Below, one piece after another: positions 4,152 through 62,053 of a DNA stretch of 64,000 bases. A program made the translations under genes and the position numbers. Under the pieces are notes generated by a model. The model searched no databases, had not been told where the DNA came from, and saw nothing but the letters and a program-made list of their open reading frames with translations. This DNA comes from Candidatus Gottesmanbacteria bacterium (GTDB taxonomy: Bacteria; Patescibacteriota; Microgenomatia; UBA10105; UBA927). The stretch covers positions 57,368-121,367 of the forward strand of contig JAHFKN010000003.1 of the NCBI GenBank assembly GCA_023245355.1, given 5' to 3'. The stretch's first letter is position 1; every line of letters begins with the position of its first letter.

Positions 4152-4371
4152 CGAAGAAATACATATATGAAAATGTTACACGCAGGAAATAGAATCATTT
4201 TTAATGTTTTGTAATGAAGATCCGAAGCTGTTTGCCAGTTCGAGACCTGCCTTGCAAAGAGAACTTTTAAGATTTGTTATCTCGAACCTTATTTTGAGGG
4301 ATAAAAAGGTCAAATATACGCTCAAAACTCCATTTGATATAGTAGCCAAATACTCTCAAAGTGAGAATTAG

Positions 4372-4442
4372 CAGGCTCGGAGGGAATCGAACCCCCAATA
4401 GAGGTTTTGGAGACCCCTGGTATACCATTTACCTACGAGCCT
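4372..4442 (-). tRNA. tRNA-Trp (anticodon CCA)
   Basis: Cloverleaf folded by hand: acceptor AGGCTCG/CGAGCCT, D-stem GGTA/TACC, anticodon stem GGGGT/ACCTC with loop CTCCAAA, T-stem GGGGG/CCCTC with loop TTCGATT, discriminator G. No CCA encoded. Confidence 0.8.
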
Positions 4443-4450
4443 ATGATGAT

Positions 4451-4699
4451 CTATTTTATCAGCTTCAGACGTTTAATTAAACCTTGATAGGCGGATCCGT
4501 GTTGTTTCAGCTTGTGCTCCCGTACTGTTGCACTGATTTTATCACGGTATGCTTCGTAATATATGAGTTGGGGATGAATCATTTTTCTTGTTGTAAAGGT
4601 TTTGCCACTAATATGTTCGCGAATTCTACGTTTAAGATCGCTTGAGTATCCAATATATAGTGAGTGATTGTTGTCTTGAAGAAGGTATACGTAATACAT
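4451..4699 (-). CDS. GIY-YIG nuclease superfamily protein (YhbQ/UPF0213-like, 82 aa)
   Basis: MYYVYLL...LYIGYSSDLKRRIREH...YYEAY...REHKLK matches the GIY-YIG core and the YhbQ-like pattern. The ORF is wedged between the tRNA-Trp 5' end and a partial tRNA copy. Confidence 0.75.
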   Translation of the reverse strand: MYYVYLLQDNNHSLYIGYSSDLKRRIREHISGKTFTTRKMIHPQLIYYEAYRDKISATVREHKLKQHGSAYQGLIKRLKLIK

Positions 4700-4700
4700 G

Positions 4701-4751
4701 GGTATACCATTTACCCCGCCTTTCGCGAAAGGCTGGGTTTACCTACGAGCC
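4701..4751 (-). repeat. Partial duplicate of tRNA-Trp 5' end (positions 1-24) interrupted by a 24-nt palindrome flanked by TAAA direct repeats
   Basis: On the minus strand, AGGCTCGTAGGTAAA + CCCAGCCTTTCGCGAAAGGCGGGG + TAAATGGTATACC reproduces GGCTCGTAGGTAAATGGTATACC of the intact tRNA. The insert (plus 4714..4737) is a near-perfect palindrome around TTTCGCGAAA, with TTTA repeated at 4710..4713 and 4738..4741. Confidence 0.7.
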
Positions 4752-4812
4752 TAACTAAAGGGTATTGTAGCAATTTTCGGCCGGGAATGAAATTCCAAAT
4801 CCGAAGGAACGA

Positions 4813-11819: not shown

Positions 11820-11934
11820 GGAATACAGGGTATTGTACCAAATAGGAAGATTGCTGTGAATGATTTTGTATGAAGCATGCGACTAATATACTTACTACAA
11901 AATGTTTGTTACCCGTCAAACGGGATCATATAGT

Positions 11935-15974: not shown

Positions 15975-16481
15975 TTATGGCTGCGGGAATGTGAACGCTG
16001 CGCTGCAGCTTGAATTCGCATTCAGGTCATCTTTGATGACCACATCCACGATGGCCGGCGTATTGGCGGTAATTGCCAGCGGTTTCGTCGTGCATCGGAA
16101 CGTGGATCCTCCCCGCTGCGGGGAAGCAGTCAGCGGGCTGGTGACGGAAGATTTTGTAACTTCCTTGCCGTCAATTTTTACTGAAAAATCACACGTTACG
16201 TTCTTGGCTCCCGTTACGTCTCCGCCTTCAACAGAAAGATAATATTCGGAAAATCCGACTTTCGGGTTAAAGTATTGCTGGTCACACCCTAAAGCCGAAA
16301 TAGGTCCCGGCGTGGGGGAGGTTACAGCAACGGGCTGCCCTGCAGGGGTTACCACGGCATTCTTCGGACTCTTTGTCCGGAAGTACCATGCACCGGCTAC
16401 AACTGCGACAACCAATACTGCCCCTACGACGTACGTCATCATGGATGGGGATTCCATGGACTCTTCAGATGTTTTATCCAT
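15975..16481 (-). CDS. Membrane-anchored hypothetical protein
   Basis: 168 aa, single N-terminal TM (MMTYVVGAVLVVAVVAGAWYF), beta-rich ectodomain. Confidence 0.35.
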   Translation of the reverse strand: MDKTSEESMESPSMMTYVVGAVLVVAVVAGAWYFRTKSPKNAVVTPAGQPVAVTSPTPGPISALGCDQQYFNPKVGFSEYYLSVEGGDVTGAKNVTCDFSVKIDGKEVTKSSVTSPLTASPQRGGSTFRCTTKPLAITANTPAIVDVVIKDDLNANSSCSAAFTFPQP

Positions 16482-16583
16482 ATAGAATCAGTATAGGAAT
16501 TTTTGTGGGTTATGCAATAGGGGAAGTTACATCCGTTGTACGCTACCCGCCGGATGACTCTCCTGGGAATGTCGGGCGTGTTG

Positions 16584-16668
16584 TGCTGAGGCCAAGATTC
16601 GAACTTGGGTAGGCCTGTCGGCCGGCAGTTTTACAGACTGCTGCGATTGTCCACTCCGCCACCTCAGC
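16584..16668 (-). tRNA. tRNA-Tyr (anticodon GTA), type II long variable arm
   Basis: Acceptor GCTGAGG/CCTCAGC, anticodon stem GCAGT/ACTGC with loop CTGTAAA, long variable arm CGGCCGACAGGCCTA, T-loop TTCGAAT, discriminator A. Confidence 0.85.
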
Positions 16669-16693: not shown

Positions 16694-16724
16694 GCCCCAG
16701 TTGCTTTGAGGGGCCACCTCAGCA
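16694..16724 (-). repeat. 12-nt duplicate of tRNA-Tyr 5' end plus adjacent GC hairpin, upstream of the intact tRNA
   Basis: Plus gccacctcagca at 16713..16724 repeats 16658..16669 (tRNA positions 1-11 plus one upstream nt). The hairpin GCCCC-N11-GGGGC lies at 16694..16714. Confidence 0.5.
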
Positions 16725-27778: not shown

Positions 27779-28997
27779 GGCGGTAAGTATATCACGATTT
27801 TACGAAAAAATTGATCCGGCAAAGTATTTTTTCCGGGGCAGAAGTAGGGCTAATTAGCTTGACAAACATGGCCTTTTTATGTTATAGGATATGCTCCTGT
27901 CTATGAAAATTCAATATATCGCCGTTCCGCTGTCCTGCCGGCGAATCACGCGAGCCCTTAGCTGGGCTTCTTTGCGTTGGGTGCTTTGCGAGAGAATTCT
28001 TATTCTCGAGCTTAGCAGCCGAACGATCCCGCTGAAGCGCTCTTTGCGCCGTGTACGGATAGTACTGAAAAGGCGCAAAGCAAGCTTGTGCGGGAGGGTT
28101 GAGGGTAATTTTTGAGGTTGGTAAAGCTGGTTGAGGCTATTTGAGGCTGGCCCGCTGGGCGGGAGGACATGGAAAAACGTTGAAATATTAGGTTGATATT
28201 TGAGGCTAGGATTGTTGACTGGCTAGTTAACGATCCCGATCAGATCGGGAGAGTTTACGAGCCATCAATCCCGCTTCGCGGGACGGGAATTGAGATTCGA
28301 AGTTCGGGTAGCTAAGGAAAACATTGAAATAACAGGCTTGATGTTGAGGCTGGGATTGCGGGCTTTTGGACAGGGAGCCCGCAATTCTGGCCTAAATGAG
28401 GCTGGACCTTGCCCCTCCCTGTGAAGCAGGGCGAGGGTGAGGGTATTGTTCTGAGCTTAAGATGTGCCTGAGCAGCCTCCAATTGCGGAGGTATGTTTCC
28501 GGGTGTGTCTTTGAGCGCACATTAACAACTGAACGAAGGAAATAGATGAAGAGTTATAGATGAGTGGAGAGTGATTACGATTGAGTGAGCAACGCATGAT
28601 ACATGCTGCAATGCTGCTCATTTTTGGCAGGAAGTTTTTTACGTGCGTAGTTTCACAATAGAACTGAACAGAGGGAAGAATTGAAGCATTCTTTCTTGTG
28701 GTCAGTTCTATTGGGGAATTTAATGTAATGTAACAATTACCATCGATTGTTTTTTAATCGATATCGACTTTGGGGGAAATTTTAAGTCTAGTACTATCCC
28801 AACTCTGTATGTGTTTTTTTATAGACACTACAACCAAGTCACGCGGAATAAACACCGCAAACTCAAGATGTAATCCCGCAAGGGTCACATCTTAAACAAT
28901 TCCGTGTCAGCTCACGTTGGCATCGGAACTACCGCACAACCAATTCAGACAATCTTTACAGAACGTCTGTTGGAATCCAATTTATAGGAGCCAGATC
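27779..28997. other. 1.2-kb ORF-free, highly structured intergenic region (candidate origin of an integrated element and/or large ncRNA)
   Basis: No convincing ORF. Contains nested inverted repeats, hairpins cccgctgggcggg (28151..28163), cccgatcagatcggg (28235..28249), cccgcttcgcggg (28270..28282), gcgggc..gcccgc (28358..28382), and an AT-rich tract (about 28680..28870) with the palindromes aatcgatatcgatt and agaactgaac..ggtcagttct. Confidence 0.5.
28112..28403 (+). repeat. Iteron-like direct repeats: TTGAGGCT(R)G in six copies, plus a duplicated 45-nt segment
   Basis: TTGAGG(C/T)T at 28112, 28131, 28141, 28200, 28344 and 28397. The 45-nt units ggaaaaacgttgaaatattaggttgatatttgaggctaggattg (28171..28215) and ggaaaacattgaaataacaggcttgatgttgaggctgggattg (28316..28358) are about 80% identical. 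Confidence 0.55.
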
Positions 28998-61188: not shown

Positions 61189-61393
61189 CAGGGGGCAGCG
61201 CATTGCGCGCCTGCGCATGGCACTTATACGGGGAGGAGCATCCGGAGTACAGATGCCGGAGGTTGACGGATATCCCGTGGCGACTGAACCGTTGCCGGGA
61301 ACCGTACGGACGACGCATGTCGATAGGCACAAACGAAGACAAACGGTTGATGTTTCCCTTGATGAGTAGAGAGAAGATCAGTGGTTCCTATGT

Positions 61394-61555
61394 GAGGCTT
61401 TGGAAGGTTGAGTCCACGAAATCCCGCTATGCGGGAGAATCGAGAATCCCTGGTAGCAATTTGAGCGTTTTATTGAGGCTTTGGAAGGTTGAGTCCACGA
61501 AATCCCGCTATGCGGGAGAATCGAGAATCCCTGGTAGCAATTTGAGCGTTTTATT
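61394..61555. repeat. 81-bp tandem direct repeat x2, tRNA-Cys-3'-end-derived, each with a CCCGCTATGCGGG hairpin
   Basis: Units 61394..61474 and 61475..61555 are identical. The third period (61556) is the tRNA-Cys 3' end itself (gaggctcggaagggaatcgaacc versus gaggctttggaaggttgagtcc). Confidence 0.8.
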
Positions 61556-61556
61556 G

Positions 61557-61628
61557 AGGCTCGGAAGGGAATCGAACCCTTGCATAGAAGTTTTGCAGAC
61601 TCCCGCGTTACCACTTCGCCACCGAGCC
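61557..61628 (-). tRNA. tRNA-Cys (anticodon GCA)
   Basis: Acceptor GGCTCGG/CCGAGCC, 3-bp D-stem, anticodon stem GGAGT/ACTTC with loop CTGCAAA, T-loop TTCGATT, discriminator U. No CCA encoded. Confidence 0.85.
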
Positions 61629-61653
61629 ATGGATATAAACATGAGTCTTTTAG

Positions 61654-61725
61654 TGGGTGCGCATAGAATCGAACTATGGACCTCTTTCTTATCAGGAAAG
61701 CGTTCTACCACTGAACTACGCACCC
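61654..61725 (-). tRNA. tRNA-Ile (anticodon GAT)
   Basis: Acceptor GGGTGCG/CGCACCC, D-loop AGTTCAGTGGTAGAAC, anticodon stem CTTTC/GAAAG with loop CTGATAA, T-loop TTCGATT, discriminator A. Confidence 0.85.
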
Positions 61726-61973
61726 AGTAAACTATTTTGTAATCTTGTTTTTAAGTCTTCTTTTAGCGCATGCATTTTGAGCTTCTTTTCTCTCATCAAT
61801 GCATCTTTTTTGTCTTTATACGCTTCGTAATATACTAAAATCCACGGTCGGTATCCTTTTGTTGATTTCACCTCTCCGTTATTGTGCTGATGTAATCTTG
61901 TACGTAAATCCCCGGTTGATCCTATATATACGTCATTATTAACCTTGCTTTTGAGGACATATACATAGTACAT
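61716..61973 (-). CDS. GIY-YIG nuclease superfamily protein (YhbQ/UPF0213-like, 85 aa)
   Basis: MYYVYVLKS...VYIGSTGDLRTRLHQH...YYEAYKDK...REKKLK. About 50% identical to the GIY-YIG protein at 4451..4699. Its 3' end overlaps the 5' end of tRNA-Ile by about 10 nt. Confidence 0.75.
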   Translation of the reverse strand: MYYVYVLKSKVNNDVYIGSTGDLRTRLHQHNNGEVKSTKGYRPWILVYYEAYKDKKDALMREKKLKMHALKEDLKTRLQNSLLGA

Positions 61974-61980
61974 ACCACTG

Positions 61981-62025
61981 TCAGGCGAAGCCTGATCTGG
62001 CTTTGCCAGAAACTACGCACCCAGT
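61981..62025 (-). repeat. Two tandem 15-nt hairpins plus a 15-nt duplicate of the tRNA-Ile 5' end, upstream of the GIY-YIG gene
   Basis: tcaggc-gaa-gcctga (61981..61995), tctggc-ttt-gccaga (61996..62010), then aactacgcacccagt (62011..62025), identical to 61713..61727 (tRNA positions 1-12 plus 3 nt upstream). Confidence 0.65.
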
Positions 62026-62053
62026 CAGGATGGCAATAATTGTACCACAAGGC

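Follow-up and report, generated by a model that had tools for sequence, protein, structure and literature searches.

Why should a tRNA gene be preceded by a broken copy of its own start, a pair of small hairpins, and an open reading frame (ORF) that runs into the tRNA itself? This question is raised by the tRNA-Ile(GAT) gene in a 64,000-nucleotide (nt) stretch of a Candidatus Gottesmanbacteria contig (JAHFKN010000003.1), the whole of which is referred to here as the window. An ORF for an 85-amino-acid (aa) GIY-YIG nuclease lies directly ahead of this tRNA, and comparison with close relatives demonstrated that the hairpins, the ORF, and a duplicated tRNA start form a 297-nt insertion that is present in some genomes and absent from others. 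We hold with moderate confidence that the insertion is a compact selfish cassette in the tRNA-Ile(GAT) leader, which would spread by homologous repair or recombination via tRNA-derived arms in a process initiated by the nuclease and marked by the hairpins.

The tRNA-Ile locus and its empty counterparts

All components of the locus lie on the minus strand. They are ordered as the stop codon of a gene for a 466-aa YkuD-type L,D-transpeptidase, the extended -10-like motif TGGTACAAT (62039-62047), a 13-nt leader, orphan fragment A, two hairpins, orphan fragment B, the ORF, tRNA-Ile, and tRNA-Cys. The invaded host gene, an intact tRNA-Ile(GAT) (61653-61725), was detected with ARAGORN and reached 72.5 bits with the Rfam tRNA model; tRNA-Cys (61556-61628; ARAGORN and Rfam) follows 24 nt past it. 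Fragment A (62011-62025), composed of ACT and tRNA-Ile nt 1-12 (ACTGGGTGCGTAGTT), is an exact copy of 61714-61728. It is followed by hairpin 1, TCTGGC-AAA-GCCAGA (TCTGGCAAAGCCAGA; 61996-62010), and hairpin 2, TCAGGC-TTC-GCCTGA (TCAGGCTTCGCCTGA; 61981-61995), both identified by folding. Fragment B (61973-61980) resumes with tRNA-Ile nt 13-20 (CAGTGGTA), and its final A is the A of the ORF's ATG. The ORF itself (61716-61973; Pfam PF01541, E value 1.5e-18) encodes a minimal single-domain nuclease. Its end reads ...TTA CTG GGT GCG TAG, in which TAG is nt 8-10 of tRNA-Ile and comes from the tRNA-supplied GGGTGCGTAG, so that the two genes overlap by 10 nt (61716-61725).

The original prediction, made from the letters of the window, had placed the end of the 85-aa ORF about 10 nt inside tRNA-Ile and two tandem 15-nt hairpins upstream of its start codon, and both features were recovered. 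The hairpins fold as two 6-bp stems with a free energy of -15.7 kcal/mol (z = -3.5). The 15-nt copy of the tRNA 5' end that it described is indeed an exact repeat: the 15-mer AACTACGCACCCAGT occurs exactly twice in the window (61714-61728 and 62011-62025), with no third site even at two mismatches and a shuffle expectation of 0.08. The full extent of the copy, however, had been missed. The orphan covers positions -3 to +20 of tRNA-Ile (23 nt) and is split after nt 12 by the 30-nt double hairpin, which lies inside the orphan and not beside it, at a site (12|13) within the D-stem. The second copy of the duplicated segment (61706-61728) closes the ORF and at the same time opens the functional tRNA.

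The motif TGGTACAAT lies 16 nt upstream of the orphan tRNA start and is presumed to be the native tRNA-Ile promoter, which now stands ahead of the ORF. The same 9-mer is kept in occupied and empty relatives alike and recurs 12 nt upstream of tRNA-Thr(GGT) (11832-11840, minus strand), and it is likely to be a tRNA promoter motif of this organism. A terminator scan returned one terminator-like site at the locus, the orphan region, which is probably a chance match. Folding of the whole transcript gave just trivial pairing of the orphan with the 3' strand of the tRNA and was uninformative on function.

Contigs of close relatives, designated here by L numbers as are the other loci collected in this work, were reached by a search with the neighboring YkuD protein. 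In L093 (YkuD 95% aa identical), the junction ...TGGTACAATTATTGCCATCCTGACT|GGGTGCGTAGTTCAGTGGTAGAACGC... leads straight on into tRNA-Ile and then tRNA-Cys, with neither the hairpins nor the ORF, and L089 (YkuD 89%) shows the same uninterrupted junction as far as the contig end. In both, the position of the orphan is the start of the intact tRNA, and the segment from -3 to +20 is present once. Because these two relatives share the flank and the promoter-like motif with the window but have an uninterrupted tRNA, the difference is an insertion: the window exceeds the empty site by 297 nt, consisting of the 30-nt double hairpin and 267 nt that hold the body of the ORF and the second copy of -3 to +20. 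The ACT ahead of the orphan is native flank, as the empty sites demonstrate, and is not conserved in L081 and L083.

The full module occupies the same place in L081 (YkuD 81%) and in L083-L088 (YkuD 91%). Every occupied tRNA-Ile allele carries both the hairpins and the ORF, and the empty sites carry neither. The element thus displays the presence and absence at a fixed site that is typical of free-standing homing genes, with the window and L081-L088 occupied and L093 and L089 empty. Since the closest host relative, L093, is empty at a synonymous divergence (dS) of 0.29 in YkuD, occupancy does not follow host phylogeny. These comparisons indicate that the element is mobile, whether the empty sites were never invaded or were vacated by excision. 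An assembly artefact was ruled out, as the same structure was present in independent NCBI, ENA, JGI, and Logan assemblies.

Two more distant relatives lack the ORF. L092 (YkuD 69%) has a clean promoter-tRNA junction with no insertion. In L091 (YkuD 72%), the intact tRNA is preceded by an orphan of nt 1-8, the TC..GA hairpin TCGCCTCATCGGCGA, and a duplicate of the flank. Comparison of the two demonstrates that a hairpin and a duplication can exist without a nuclease gene.

The element was also younger than its surroundings. By the Nei-Gojobori method, which was used for dS and for the ratio of nonsynonymous to synonymous divergence (dN/dS), the GIY-YIG ORFs of the window and L081 differed with a dS of 0.31 compared to 2.0 for YkuD; the corresponding values were 0.34 and 0.62 for the window and L083, and 0.10 and 2.5 for L081 and L083. 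Along the last pair, nucleotide identity was 82% at the end of YkuD and 81% in the intergenic region, rose to 98% in the orphan and hairpins, 97% in the ORF, and 97% in tRNA-Ile, and fell to 64% in the spacer between tRNA-Ile and tRNA-Cys, 81% in tRNA-Cys, and 44% further downstream. The high-identity tract ends in the orphan fragment on the left and in the body of tRNA-Ile on the right. A tract bounded by tRNA-derived repeats fits a role of these repeats as homology arms of conversion or recombination. An element younger than its context, in a tract with defined ends, is what horizontal spread of a homing gene leaves behind, and the pattern indicates that the element entered the same tRNA site horizontally and recently.

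Constraint was evident in both parts of the insertion. The ORF is under purifying selection, with a dN/dS of approximately 0.13. Between the window and L081 or L083, the hairpins (30/30) and the orphan (20/20) were identical at a synonymous difference of 0.25-0.28 in the ORF; the hairpins and orphan are constrained because they stayed unchanged while about one-quarter of the synonymous sites in the ORF differ. Hairpin 1 was identical across L081-L088 despite 8-9% divergence of the ORF. Elsewhere in the family, hairpin 2 of L002 has a compensatory change (TCACGC-TCT-GCGTGA), and that of L001 contains a G.T pair.

The encoded nuclease and its family

The protein belongs to the GIY-YIG superfamily, with 67.3 bits against a Pfam cut-off of 22.6 for residues 1-68 of 85. 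Nine residues were invariant in 30 homologues (Y3, Y5, Y16, G18, R26, H30, E50, R61, and E62). A phmmer search of the PDB gave UPF0213 protein BH0048 (1ZG2) as the sole match (E value, 9e-5). An AlphaFold model (AF2) had a predicted local distance difference test (pLDDT) score of 89.6, and with it Foldseek retrieved 1ZG2 and the Slx1 nuclease domain at E values of 8e-4 to 1e-2, 31-38% identity, and a root-mean-square deviation of about 2 Å; I-TevI (E value, 0.16) and UvrC (E value, 1.1) ranked lower. The model thus places the protein in the fold class of minimal Slx1/UPF0213-type GIY-YIG domains and not in that of I-TevI. Slx1 is a structure-specific nuclease for branched DNA. A second domain or DNA-binding module, which would be expected of a homing gene, was found in the 85-aa protein neither with Pfam nor in the model. 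At this length, there would be no room for a module that reads a long tRNA-specific site, and structure specificity is predicted here. An Asn (N80, motif NSL), a candidate counterpart of the I-TevI Asn, is frequent among the aligned homologues but absent from the tRNA-Trp paralogue described below and from P0098. A C-terminal catalytic Asn is typical of the UvrC/homing endonuclease (HEase) lineage and lacking in the Slx1-like lineage (PMC1564403). The same 2006 survey of the superfamily derived the selfish GIY-YIG endonucleases from the UvrC/HEase lineage and regarded the stand-alone prokaryotic Slx1-like proteins as a vertically inherited lineage of repair enzymes (PMC1564403).

Other annotation sources added little. 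PADLOC and PHROGs returned weak, partial matches to the GIY-YIG motif and nothing more, and no relatives were found in viral contigs, so that carriage by phages is unsupported. At the Rfam gathering score, the window contained tRNAs and 16S rRNA alone, with no group I or II intron, and the NCBIfam group I intron endonuclease model reached 25 bits against a cut-off of 56. A group I or archaeal-type tRNA intron was ruled out, as no ribozyme is present, the intact tRNA is uninterrupted, and the ORF lies outside the mature tRNA.

A second element of the same plan is located in the window at tRNA-Trp (4371-4752, minus strand), where an orphan of nt 1-24 (4701-4752) is followed by an 82-aa GIY-YIG ORF (4451-4699) and the intact tRNA-Trp (4371-4442). 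Comparison of the two loci confirmed their common build: a hairpin (CCCAGCCTTTCGCGAAAGGCGGG), accompanied by a 6-nt duplication, likewise interrupts the tRNA-Trp orphan after nt 15, and the orphan then leads into the ATG. The order of tRNA fragment, hairpins, ORF, and full tRNA that had been proposed for both therefore stands, with the correction that the hairpins interrupt the orphan. The two proteins are paralogous, as had been suggested, although their identity is 45% over 69 aa and not about 50%.

To extend these observations, further tRNA-adjacent copies were sought in other genomes, as the original prediction had proposed. A pattern scan with one genome per species yielded 80 loci with 90 homologous ORFs. 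The hosts are mostly metagenome-assembled genomes of Patescibacteria, or the candidate phyla radiation (CPR), and also include Omnitrophota, Bacteroidota (among them the cultured Luteirhabdus pelagi), and further groups. A same-strand tRNA started between -23 and +150 nt from the ORF end in 39 of the 90 cases, representing 20 anticodon types, and a tRNA on the opposite strand was found beside 1 of 90. Among the 39, 21 exactly repeated 9 nt or more of the cognate tRNA start in the 120 nt ahead of the ATG, and diverged cognate copies were present at further loci. In the control, 1 of 1314 non-cognate pairs of tRNA and upstream region matched over at least 9 nt. Within the window, tRNA-Thr(GGT), tRNA-Thr(TGT), and tRNA-Cys have no copy of their own start upstream, and tRNA-Tyr has one of 12 nt. 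A generic tRNA leader motif, the observation that had been named as fatal to the proposal, was ruled out by the contrast between non-cognate and cognate pairs and by the Thr and Cys genes without a copy.

At most tRNA-linked loci, the orphan is broken by one or two GC-rich hairpins, with the tRNA sequence resuming directly after them. The breaks fall after nt 10-13, 15-18, or 21-23 in the D-arm or after nt 33-36 in the anticodon loop. The idea that hairpins always occupy tRNA loops was thus true in part, the site 12|13 of tRNA-Ile being in the D-stem. Constancy of the duplicated length per tRNA species, which the original prediction had suggested checking, did not hold; the length is constant within an element lineage. 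For Cys, it is approximately 14-17 nt in L005, L008, and L011 and 45-48 nt in L003, L004, and L007, and for Ser(TGA), it is 20 nt in L059, L069, and L080 and 43 nt in L018. A number of family members have ORFs that end on a TAG within the tRNA, either U8-A9-G10 or a TAG in the D-loop. The tRNA-supplied U8-A9-G10 is the stop codon in the window and in L001, L002, L026, L052, L070, and L078, and processing by ribonuclease P (RNase P) at the tRNA start would leave these mRNAs without a stop codon.

Other ORFs of the family are flanked by inverted repeats of 12-22 nt that start with CCCC(G/C)CAC and end with GTG(C/G)GGGG (CCCCGCAC...GTGCGGGG type). According to Rfam, elements of this class lie within 23S rRNA genes (L010 and L040), within 16S rRNA genes (L030, L044, and L060), and, at P3-like and P12-like positions, within RNase P RNA genes or at their 5' ends (L029, L038, L055, and L068). 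At five tRNA loci (L078, L076, L019, L015, and L024), they are inserted after nt 10 with a 7-nt duplication (nt 4-10), and tRNA nt 1-3 come from the GGG at the end of the element, so that part of the functional acceptor stem is element-derived. In a rough neighbor-joining tree, the two architectures were intermixed, and the hairpin class was grouped by target, with Ile beside Cys, a Ser clade, and a Glu clade. The hairpin type follows the protein clade, differing among the Ile/Cys, Ser, and Glu groups. Overall, the proposal of a selfish family in place of a coincidence was borne out by the empty sites, the divergence values, and the 20 anticodon types, but the family is not confined to tRNA genes, as it also targets 16S, 23S, and RNase P RNA genes.

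In L052 (Luteirhabdus pelagi A3-108), ORF1, a hairpin-split pseudo-tRNA-Arg, ORF2, and tRNA-Arg(TCG) follow each other in tandem, and paired ORFs were also found in L013, L018, and L076. Tandem arrangements such as that of L052 look like re-invasion of an occupied tRNA. This strain is culturable, and the system is testable in it.

The window contains further features of a related kind. Two tandem ORF-less units of 81 nt directly follow tRNA-Cys (61393-61554, minus strand); such units are absent from L093, present once in L083 and L084, and present twice here. Each comprises a decayed tRNA-Cys 3' end (CCTTCCAAAGCCTCA) and a TC..GA hairpin (TCCCGCATAGCGGGA) at a T-loop-like position, and the units are an ORF-less insertion of the same style with duplication of the tRNA 3' end. 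An exact 12-nt copy of the tRNA-Tyr start (TGCTGAGGTGGC; 16713-16724, minus strand) lies 44 nt upstream of tRNA-Tyr (16583-16668) and is followed by CCCTCAAAGC... with no ORF; it may be a relic of an element of the inverted-repeat class. More TC..GA hairpins occur elsewhere in the window. One of 15 nt (TCCCCGCTGCGGGGA; 16110-16124) is located within a 168-aa ORF (15975-16481, minus strand) and may be an in-frame insertion in a protein gene, because its length is a multiple of three. A non-coding region of about 1.1 kb (27780-28920) contains repeated TTGAGGCT motifs, the complement of tRNA-Cys/Trp 3' ends, along with two TC..GA hairpins (28234-28250 and 28269-28283) and several imperfect inverted repeats. 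This region may be a graveyard of tRNA-end fragments.

A proposed route of spread and its alternatives

The arrangement suggests the following route for the proposed cassette. To the ancestral order of promoter, 16-nt leader, and tRNA, 297 nt have been added; the old tRNA start is orphaned beside the promoter, and the host keeps an intact tRNA thanks to the element's second copy of -3 to +20. The tRNA promoter TGGTACAAT would then transcribe the orphan, the ORF, and the tRNA together, and RNase P would separate them, at this locus removing the stop codon of the mRNA. Spread would occur when an occupied allele serves as the template for repair of a broken, unoccupied tRNA-Ile gene. The orphan would pair with the left side of the break and the intact tRNA copy with the right side, and the repair would bring along the hairpins, the ORF, and a fresh 5' segment. 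The break may be made by the encoded nuclease, or the nuclease may cut a DNA structure that starts the copying. It would probably act on a DNA structure or a short motif and not on a long sequence. The cut would most likely fall at the position of the hairpins, at 12|13 in the D-arm here and at 33|34 in the Cys lineage, and the double hairpin would mark and block this site in the orphan copy. As both homology arms are tRNA-derived, the cassette would be independent of the surrounding genome.

Several points weigh against this interpretation. The left homology arm before the hairpins is 12 nt, which is short for RecA-type recombination. Sequence-specific cutting of approximately 20 tRNA genes by close relatives is hard to explain without a recognition module, and the resident intact tRNA still contains any site that lies wholly within the tRNA, so that self-cleavage is not obviously avoided. 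Both the cleavage activity of the nuclease and its target are predictions. A two-hexamer promoter scan found no promoter at the locus and did not call TGGTACAAT. The empty sites could be precise excisions via the direct repeats and not never-occupied alleles, and the dS values are noisy, coming as they do from a gene of 85 codons. Finally, double hairpins mostly occur away from GIY-YIG genes, their orientation relative to the ORF is biased and not fixed, and the hairpin may be an independent passenger.

The last points led to the strongest alternative, in which the double hairpin is not part of the cassette and constitutes an independent miniature palindromic mobile element at TG|CA-like sites. 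An exact-pattern scan of metagenome contigs for TCYGGCNNNGCCRGATCNNGCNNNGCNNGA gave at least 120 stretches, and 80 loci among the matches listed were analyzed; the counts in this paragraph refer to the matches listed. Two perfect stems with AT-rich flanks were present in 51 copies, with a GIY-YIG gene within 150 nt of 10 of them and a tRNA within 400 nt of 18, leaving 41/51 and 33/51, respectively, without such a neighbor. Under a looser definition with 82 clean copies, the flanks were TG| in 41 and |CA in 29, which indicates insertion in the middle of TGCA, and direct repeats of at least 7 nt spanned the element in 32% compared to 11% at control positions. The stems are paired far beyond chance. 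The double hairpin is a member of a 30-nt palindromic repeat family that is widespread and turns up at a distance from GIY-YIG genes as well.

TGCA is U33-G-C-A36 of tRNA-Cys, and pseudo-tRNA-Cys copies with the double hairpin in the T loop or at the anticodon (TG|CA), at 33|34 or between G34 and C35, were found in L097, L115, L131, L154, L157, and L161. Some of these copies form tandem arrays beside a real tRNA-Cys. Copies with an ORF behind them usually have a first loop rich in purines and a second rich in pyrimidines, with exceptions. A hairpin would on this account survive in an orphan only since insertion into a functional tRNA would be lethal, and hairpin and nuclease would meet in a shared graveyard of pseudo-tRNAs; ORF-less, hairpin-bearing pseudo-tRNAs (L091, L097, L131, L154, L161, and the 81-nt units of the window), the varying orientation relative to the ORF (L097 compared with L154), and the other TC..GA hairpins of the window fit it. 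A mere passenger does not readily explain why hairpins and ORF are absent together from the empty sites and present together in all occupied Ile alleles, why the hairpins are identical at 30/30 positions where neutral sites differ by approximately 25%, or why their type tracks the protein clade (Ile/Cys, Ser, and Glu). A GIY-YIG start also lies within 120 nt downstream in 39 of 165 collected double hairpins, far above the gene-density expectation, in a collection of loci that was partly selected for GIY-YIG. We regard an independent hairpin as a possibility of limited weight.

A true transposon is a somewhat weaker candidate, and we think it unlikely. The GIY-YIG protein would here serve as a structure-specific, transposase-like nuclease acting on terminal hairpins or inverted repeats, its insertions would produce target duplications of varying length, and the tRNA repeat would be a long target-site duplication favored by selection since it restores the tRNA. 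Sister elements do carry inverted repeats of 12-22 nt with flanking direct repeats of 4-11 nt, near-identical elements are found in unrelated flanks (L012, L037, and L041), all five inverted-repeat insertions in tRNAs lie after nt 10 with the 7-nt duplication, and the enrichment of lone double hairpins in direct repeats of at least 7 nt (32% vs. 11%, among the matches listed) points the same way. The element in the window, in contrast, has no terminal inverted repeats, its hairpins lie within one repeat copy and not at an element end, and the Ile element was at the same tRNA site in every relative sampled. Its duplication of 23 nt, with up to 48 nt in relatives, is also longer and more variable than known transposase staggers, and no transposase of the GIY-YIG fold is known to us from prokaryotes.

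The idea that the hairpins are decaying remnants of terminal inverted repeats was disfavored at this locus, where they are perfectly conserved. As their evolutionary origin, terminal inverted repeats are plausible, since L070 contains a hairpin of 40 nt and the palindromes of L008, L011, L059, and L131 are perfect over 30 nt. A mixture of an independent hairpin and hairpin-based transposition, whether by cut-and-paste or by copying, is also possible. In this direction, we tentatively consider that GIY-YIG ORFs with double hairpins, together with the sisters bearing 12-22-nt inverted repeats, could represent an unrecognised mobile class driven by an Slx1-type structure-specific nuclease in place of a transposase, an integrase, or a classical homing endonuclease. 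If so, copies with an ORF would be autonomous, and lone double hairpins would be non-autonomous derivatives or footprints of cleavage sites. The class would be specialised on DNA for structured RNA (the D, anticodon, and T arms of tRNA, rRNA helices, and P3/P12 of RNase P RNA) and would explain part of the insertion load of stable-RNA genes in CPR bacteria.

It is very unlikely that the ORF serves the host, whether as an Slx1-like nuclease for repair or as a defence gene, and is co-transcribed with stable RNA genes by chance, with the tRNA fragment as debris of a local duplication. Purifying selection on the ORF and the earlier reading of the prokaryotic Slx1-like family as vertically inherited repair enzymes (PMC1564403) would be in keeping with it. 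The gene is nevertheless patchy among close relatives with discordant divergence, its family interrupts rRNA and RNase P RNA genes and leaves tandem copies and decayed relics, and the PADLOC matches are weak and partial.

Least probable of all, and hardly to be expected, is an OMEGA-like guide RNA formed by the orphan and hairpins and steering the nuclease to the matching tRNA gene. In its favor, target-derived sequence immediately precedes a conserved structured module in the 5' untranslated region of the nuclease, the guide would change automatically with each new target, and approximately 20 targets of an 85-aa protein without a DNA-binding domain would be explained. Against it, the hairpins vary in orientation and are also found by themselves, the inverted-repeat relatives lack the arrangement, the resident tRNA would match the guide too, and no RNA-guided GIY-YIG enzyme is known to us.

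Significance and comparison with known systems

In full-text literature searches, which left most subscription journals uncovered, no description of tRNA-linked GIY-YIG cassettes was found, and the same holds for a 5' duplication as homology arm, insertions in RNase P RNA genes, the inverted repeats, the link to double hairpins, and the Slx1-type identity. The chance that nuclease and hairpins together make up a new mobile-element class is substantial. If the selfish-cassette reading is correct, the smallest known GIY-YIG proteins, the Slx1/UPF0213 group long seen as housekeeping repair enzymes, include active selfish elements. It would also represent a new form of tRNA-gene parasitism, in which an element settles between promoter and tRNA, copies the 5' end, and borrows the promoter and the U8-A9-G10 stop; carrying both arms, it could move between genomes that share the tRNA sequence alone. 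The insertions in tRNA, rRNA, and RNase P RNA genes of CPR/Patescibacteria may then belong to one element family, and that origin could extend to the pseudo-tRNA fragments and GC-rich mini-palindromes scattered through these genomes. As possible tools, the 85-aa nuclease, whose targeting logic would be portable, and the 30-nt palindrome, which would insert itself, are attractive for biochemistry. In genome annotation, ORFs that run into the 5' ends of tRNAs are to be expected, as are orphan tRNA pieces.

Among known systems, OMEGA nucleases, which use a structured guide RNA, differ in having a RuvC/HNH effector in place of the GIY-YIG fold. REP/REPIN-RAYT systems are similar in their dispersed short palindromes and in a nuclease gene flanked by the same kind of repeat, but RAYT is of the HUH/Y1 type, and the repeats described here are much shorter and tied to structural RNA genes. 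The double-hairpin and repetitive hairpin elements of fungal and sponge mitochondria share adjacent GC-rich hairpin pairs in AT-rich genomes, dispersal across intergenic DNA and rRNA genes, conserved stems with varying loops, and identical copies across species, and the mechanism of mobility of the fungal ones is described there as unknown (PMC10085805; PMC2800124). The likeness is one of form. The hosts differ, and the bacterial copies are 30 nt long, show a preference for TG|CA and pseudo-tRNA loops, and are enriched next to a nuclease gene.

Prophages, integrative and conjugative elements, and genomic islands that integrate at tRNA genes are likewise flanked by direct repeats of the tRNA, which is regenerated, and a repeat of this kind was found here at 23 nt. 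These elements usually use the 3' end of the tRNA, whereas the cassette uses the 5' end and is only about 300 bp. It also has no tyrosine or serine recombinase, as the 297-nt insert holds the GIY-YIG ORF alone.

GIY-YIG ORFs have been reported in non-intron insertions of CPR rRNA genes and were considered there outside the context of homing; the paper mentions tRNA 0 times (Tsurumaki et al., J Bacteriol 2024; PMC11270868). Those insertions resemble the present family in host group, in homologues within 16S and 23S rRNA genes, and in not being group I or II introns. The copy in the window lies in a tRNA leader and not in an rRNA gene, as its homologues L010, L030, L040, L044, and L060 do, and that study gives no account of the tRNA-leader form with its 5' duplication, of insertions in RNase P RNA, of inverted repeats, or of double hairpins (PMC11270868). 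The stand-alone Slx1-like/UPF0213 proteins (BH0048, 1ZG2; the Escherichia coli YhbQ family) and the Slx1 domain are the best matches in sequence and structure and are single-domain as well. That family has been described as vertical and repair-related (PMC1564403), whereas the cassette gene behaves as mobile DNA.

The closest parallel in behavior is provided by free-standing GIY-YIG homing genes, such as the Seg genes of T4 and the relatives of I-TevI, which share the presence and absence at a fixed site, the horizontal spread, a host gene that stays functional, and the GIY-YIG core. Organellar homing endonuclease genes may bring a duplicate piece of the invaded gene. The cassette differs from free-standing homing genes in that its protein is the catalytic domain alone, nearest to Slx1/UPF0213, and in that it targets the 5' end of a tRNA with a 5' duplication and carries both arms, one of them split by hairpins. 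On this comparison, we rate the cassette as a new form of free-standing, homing-type nuclease cassette.

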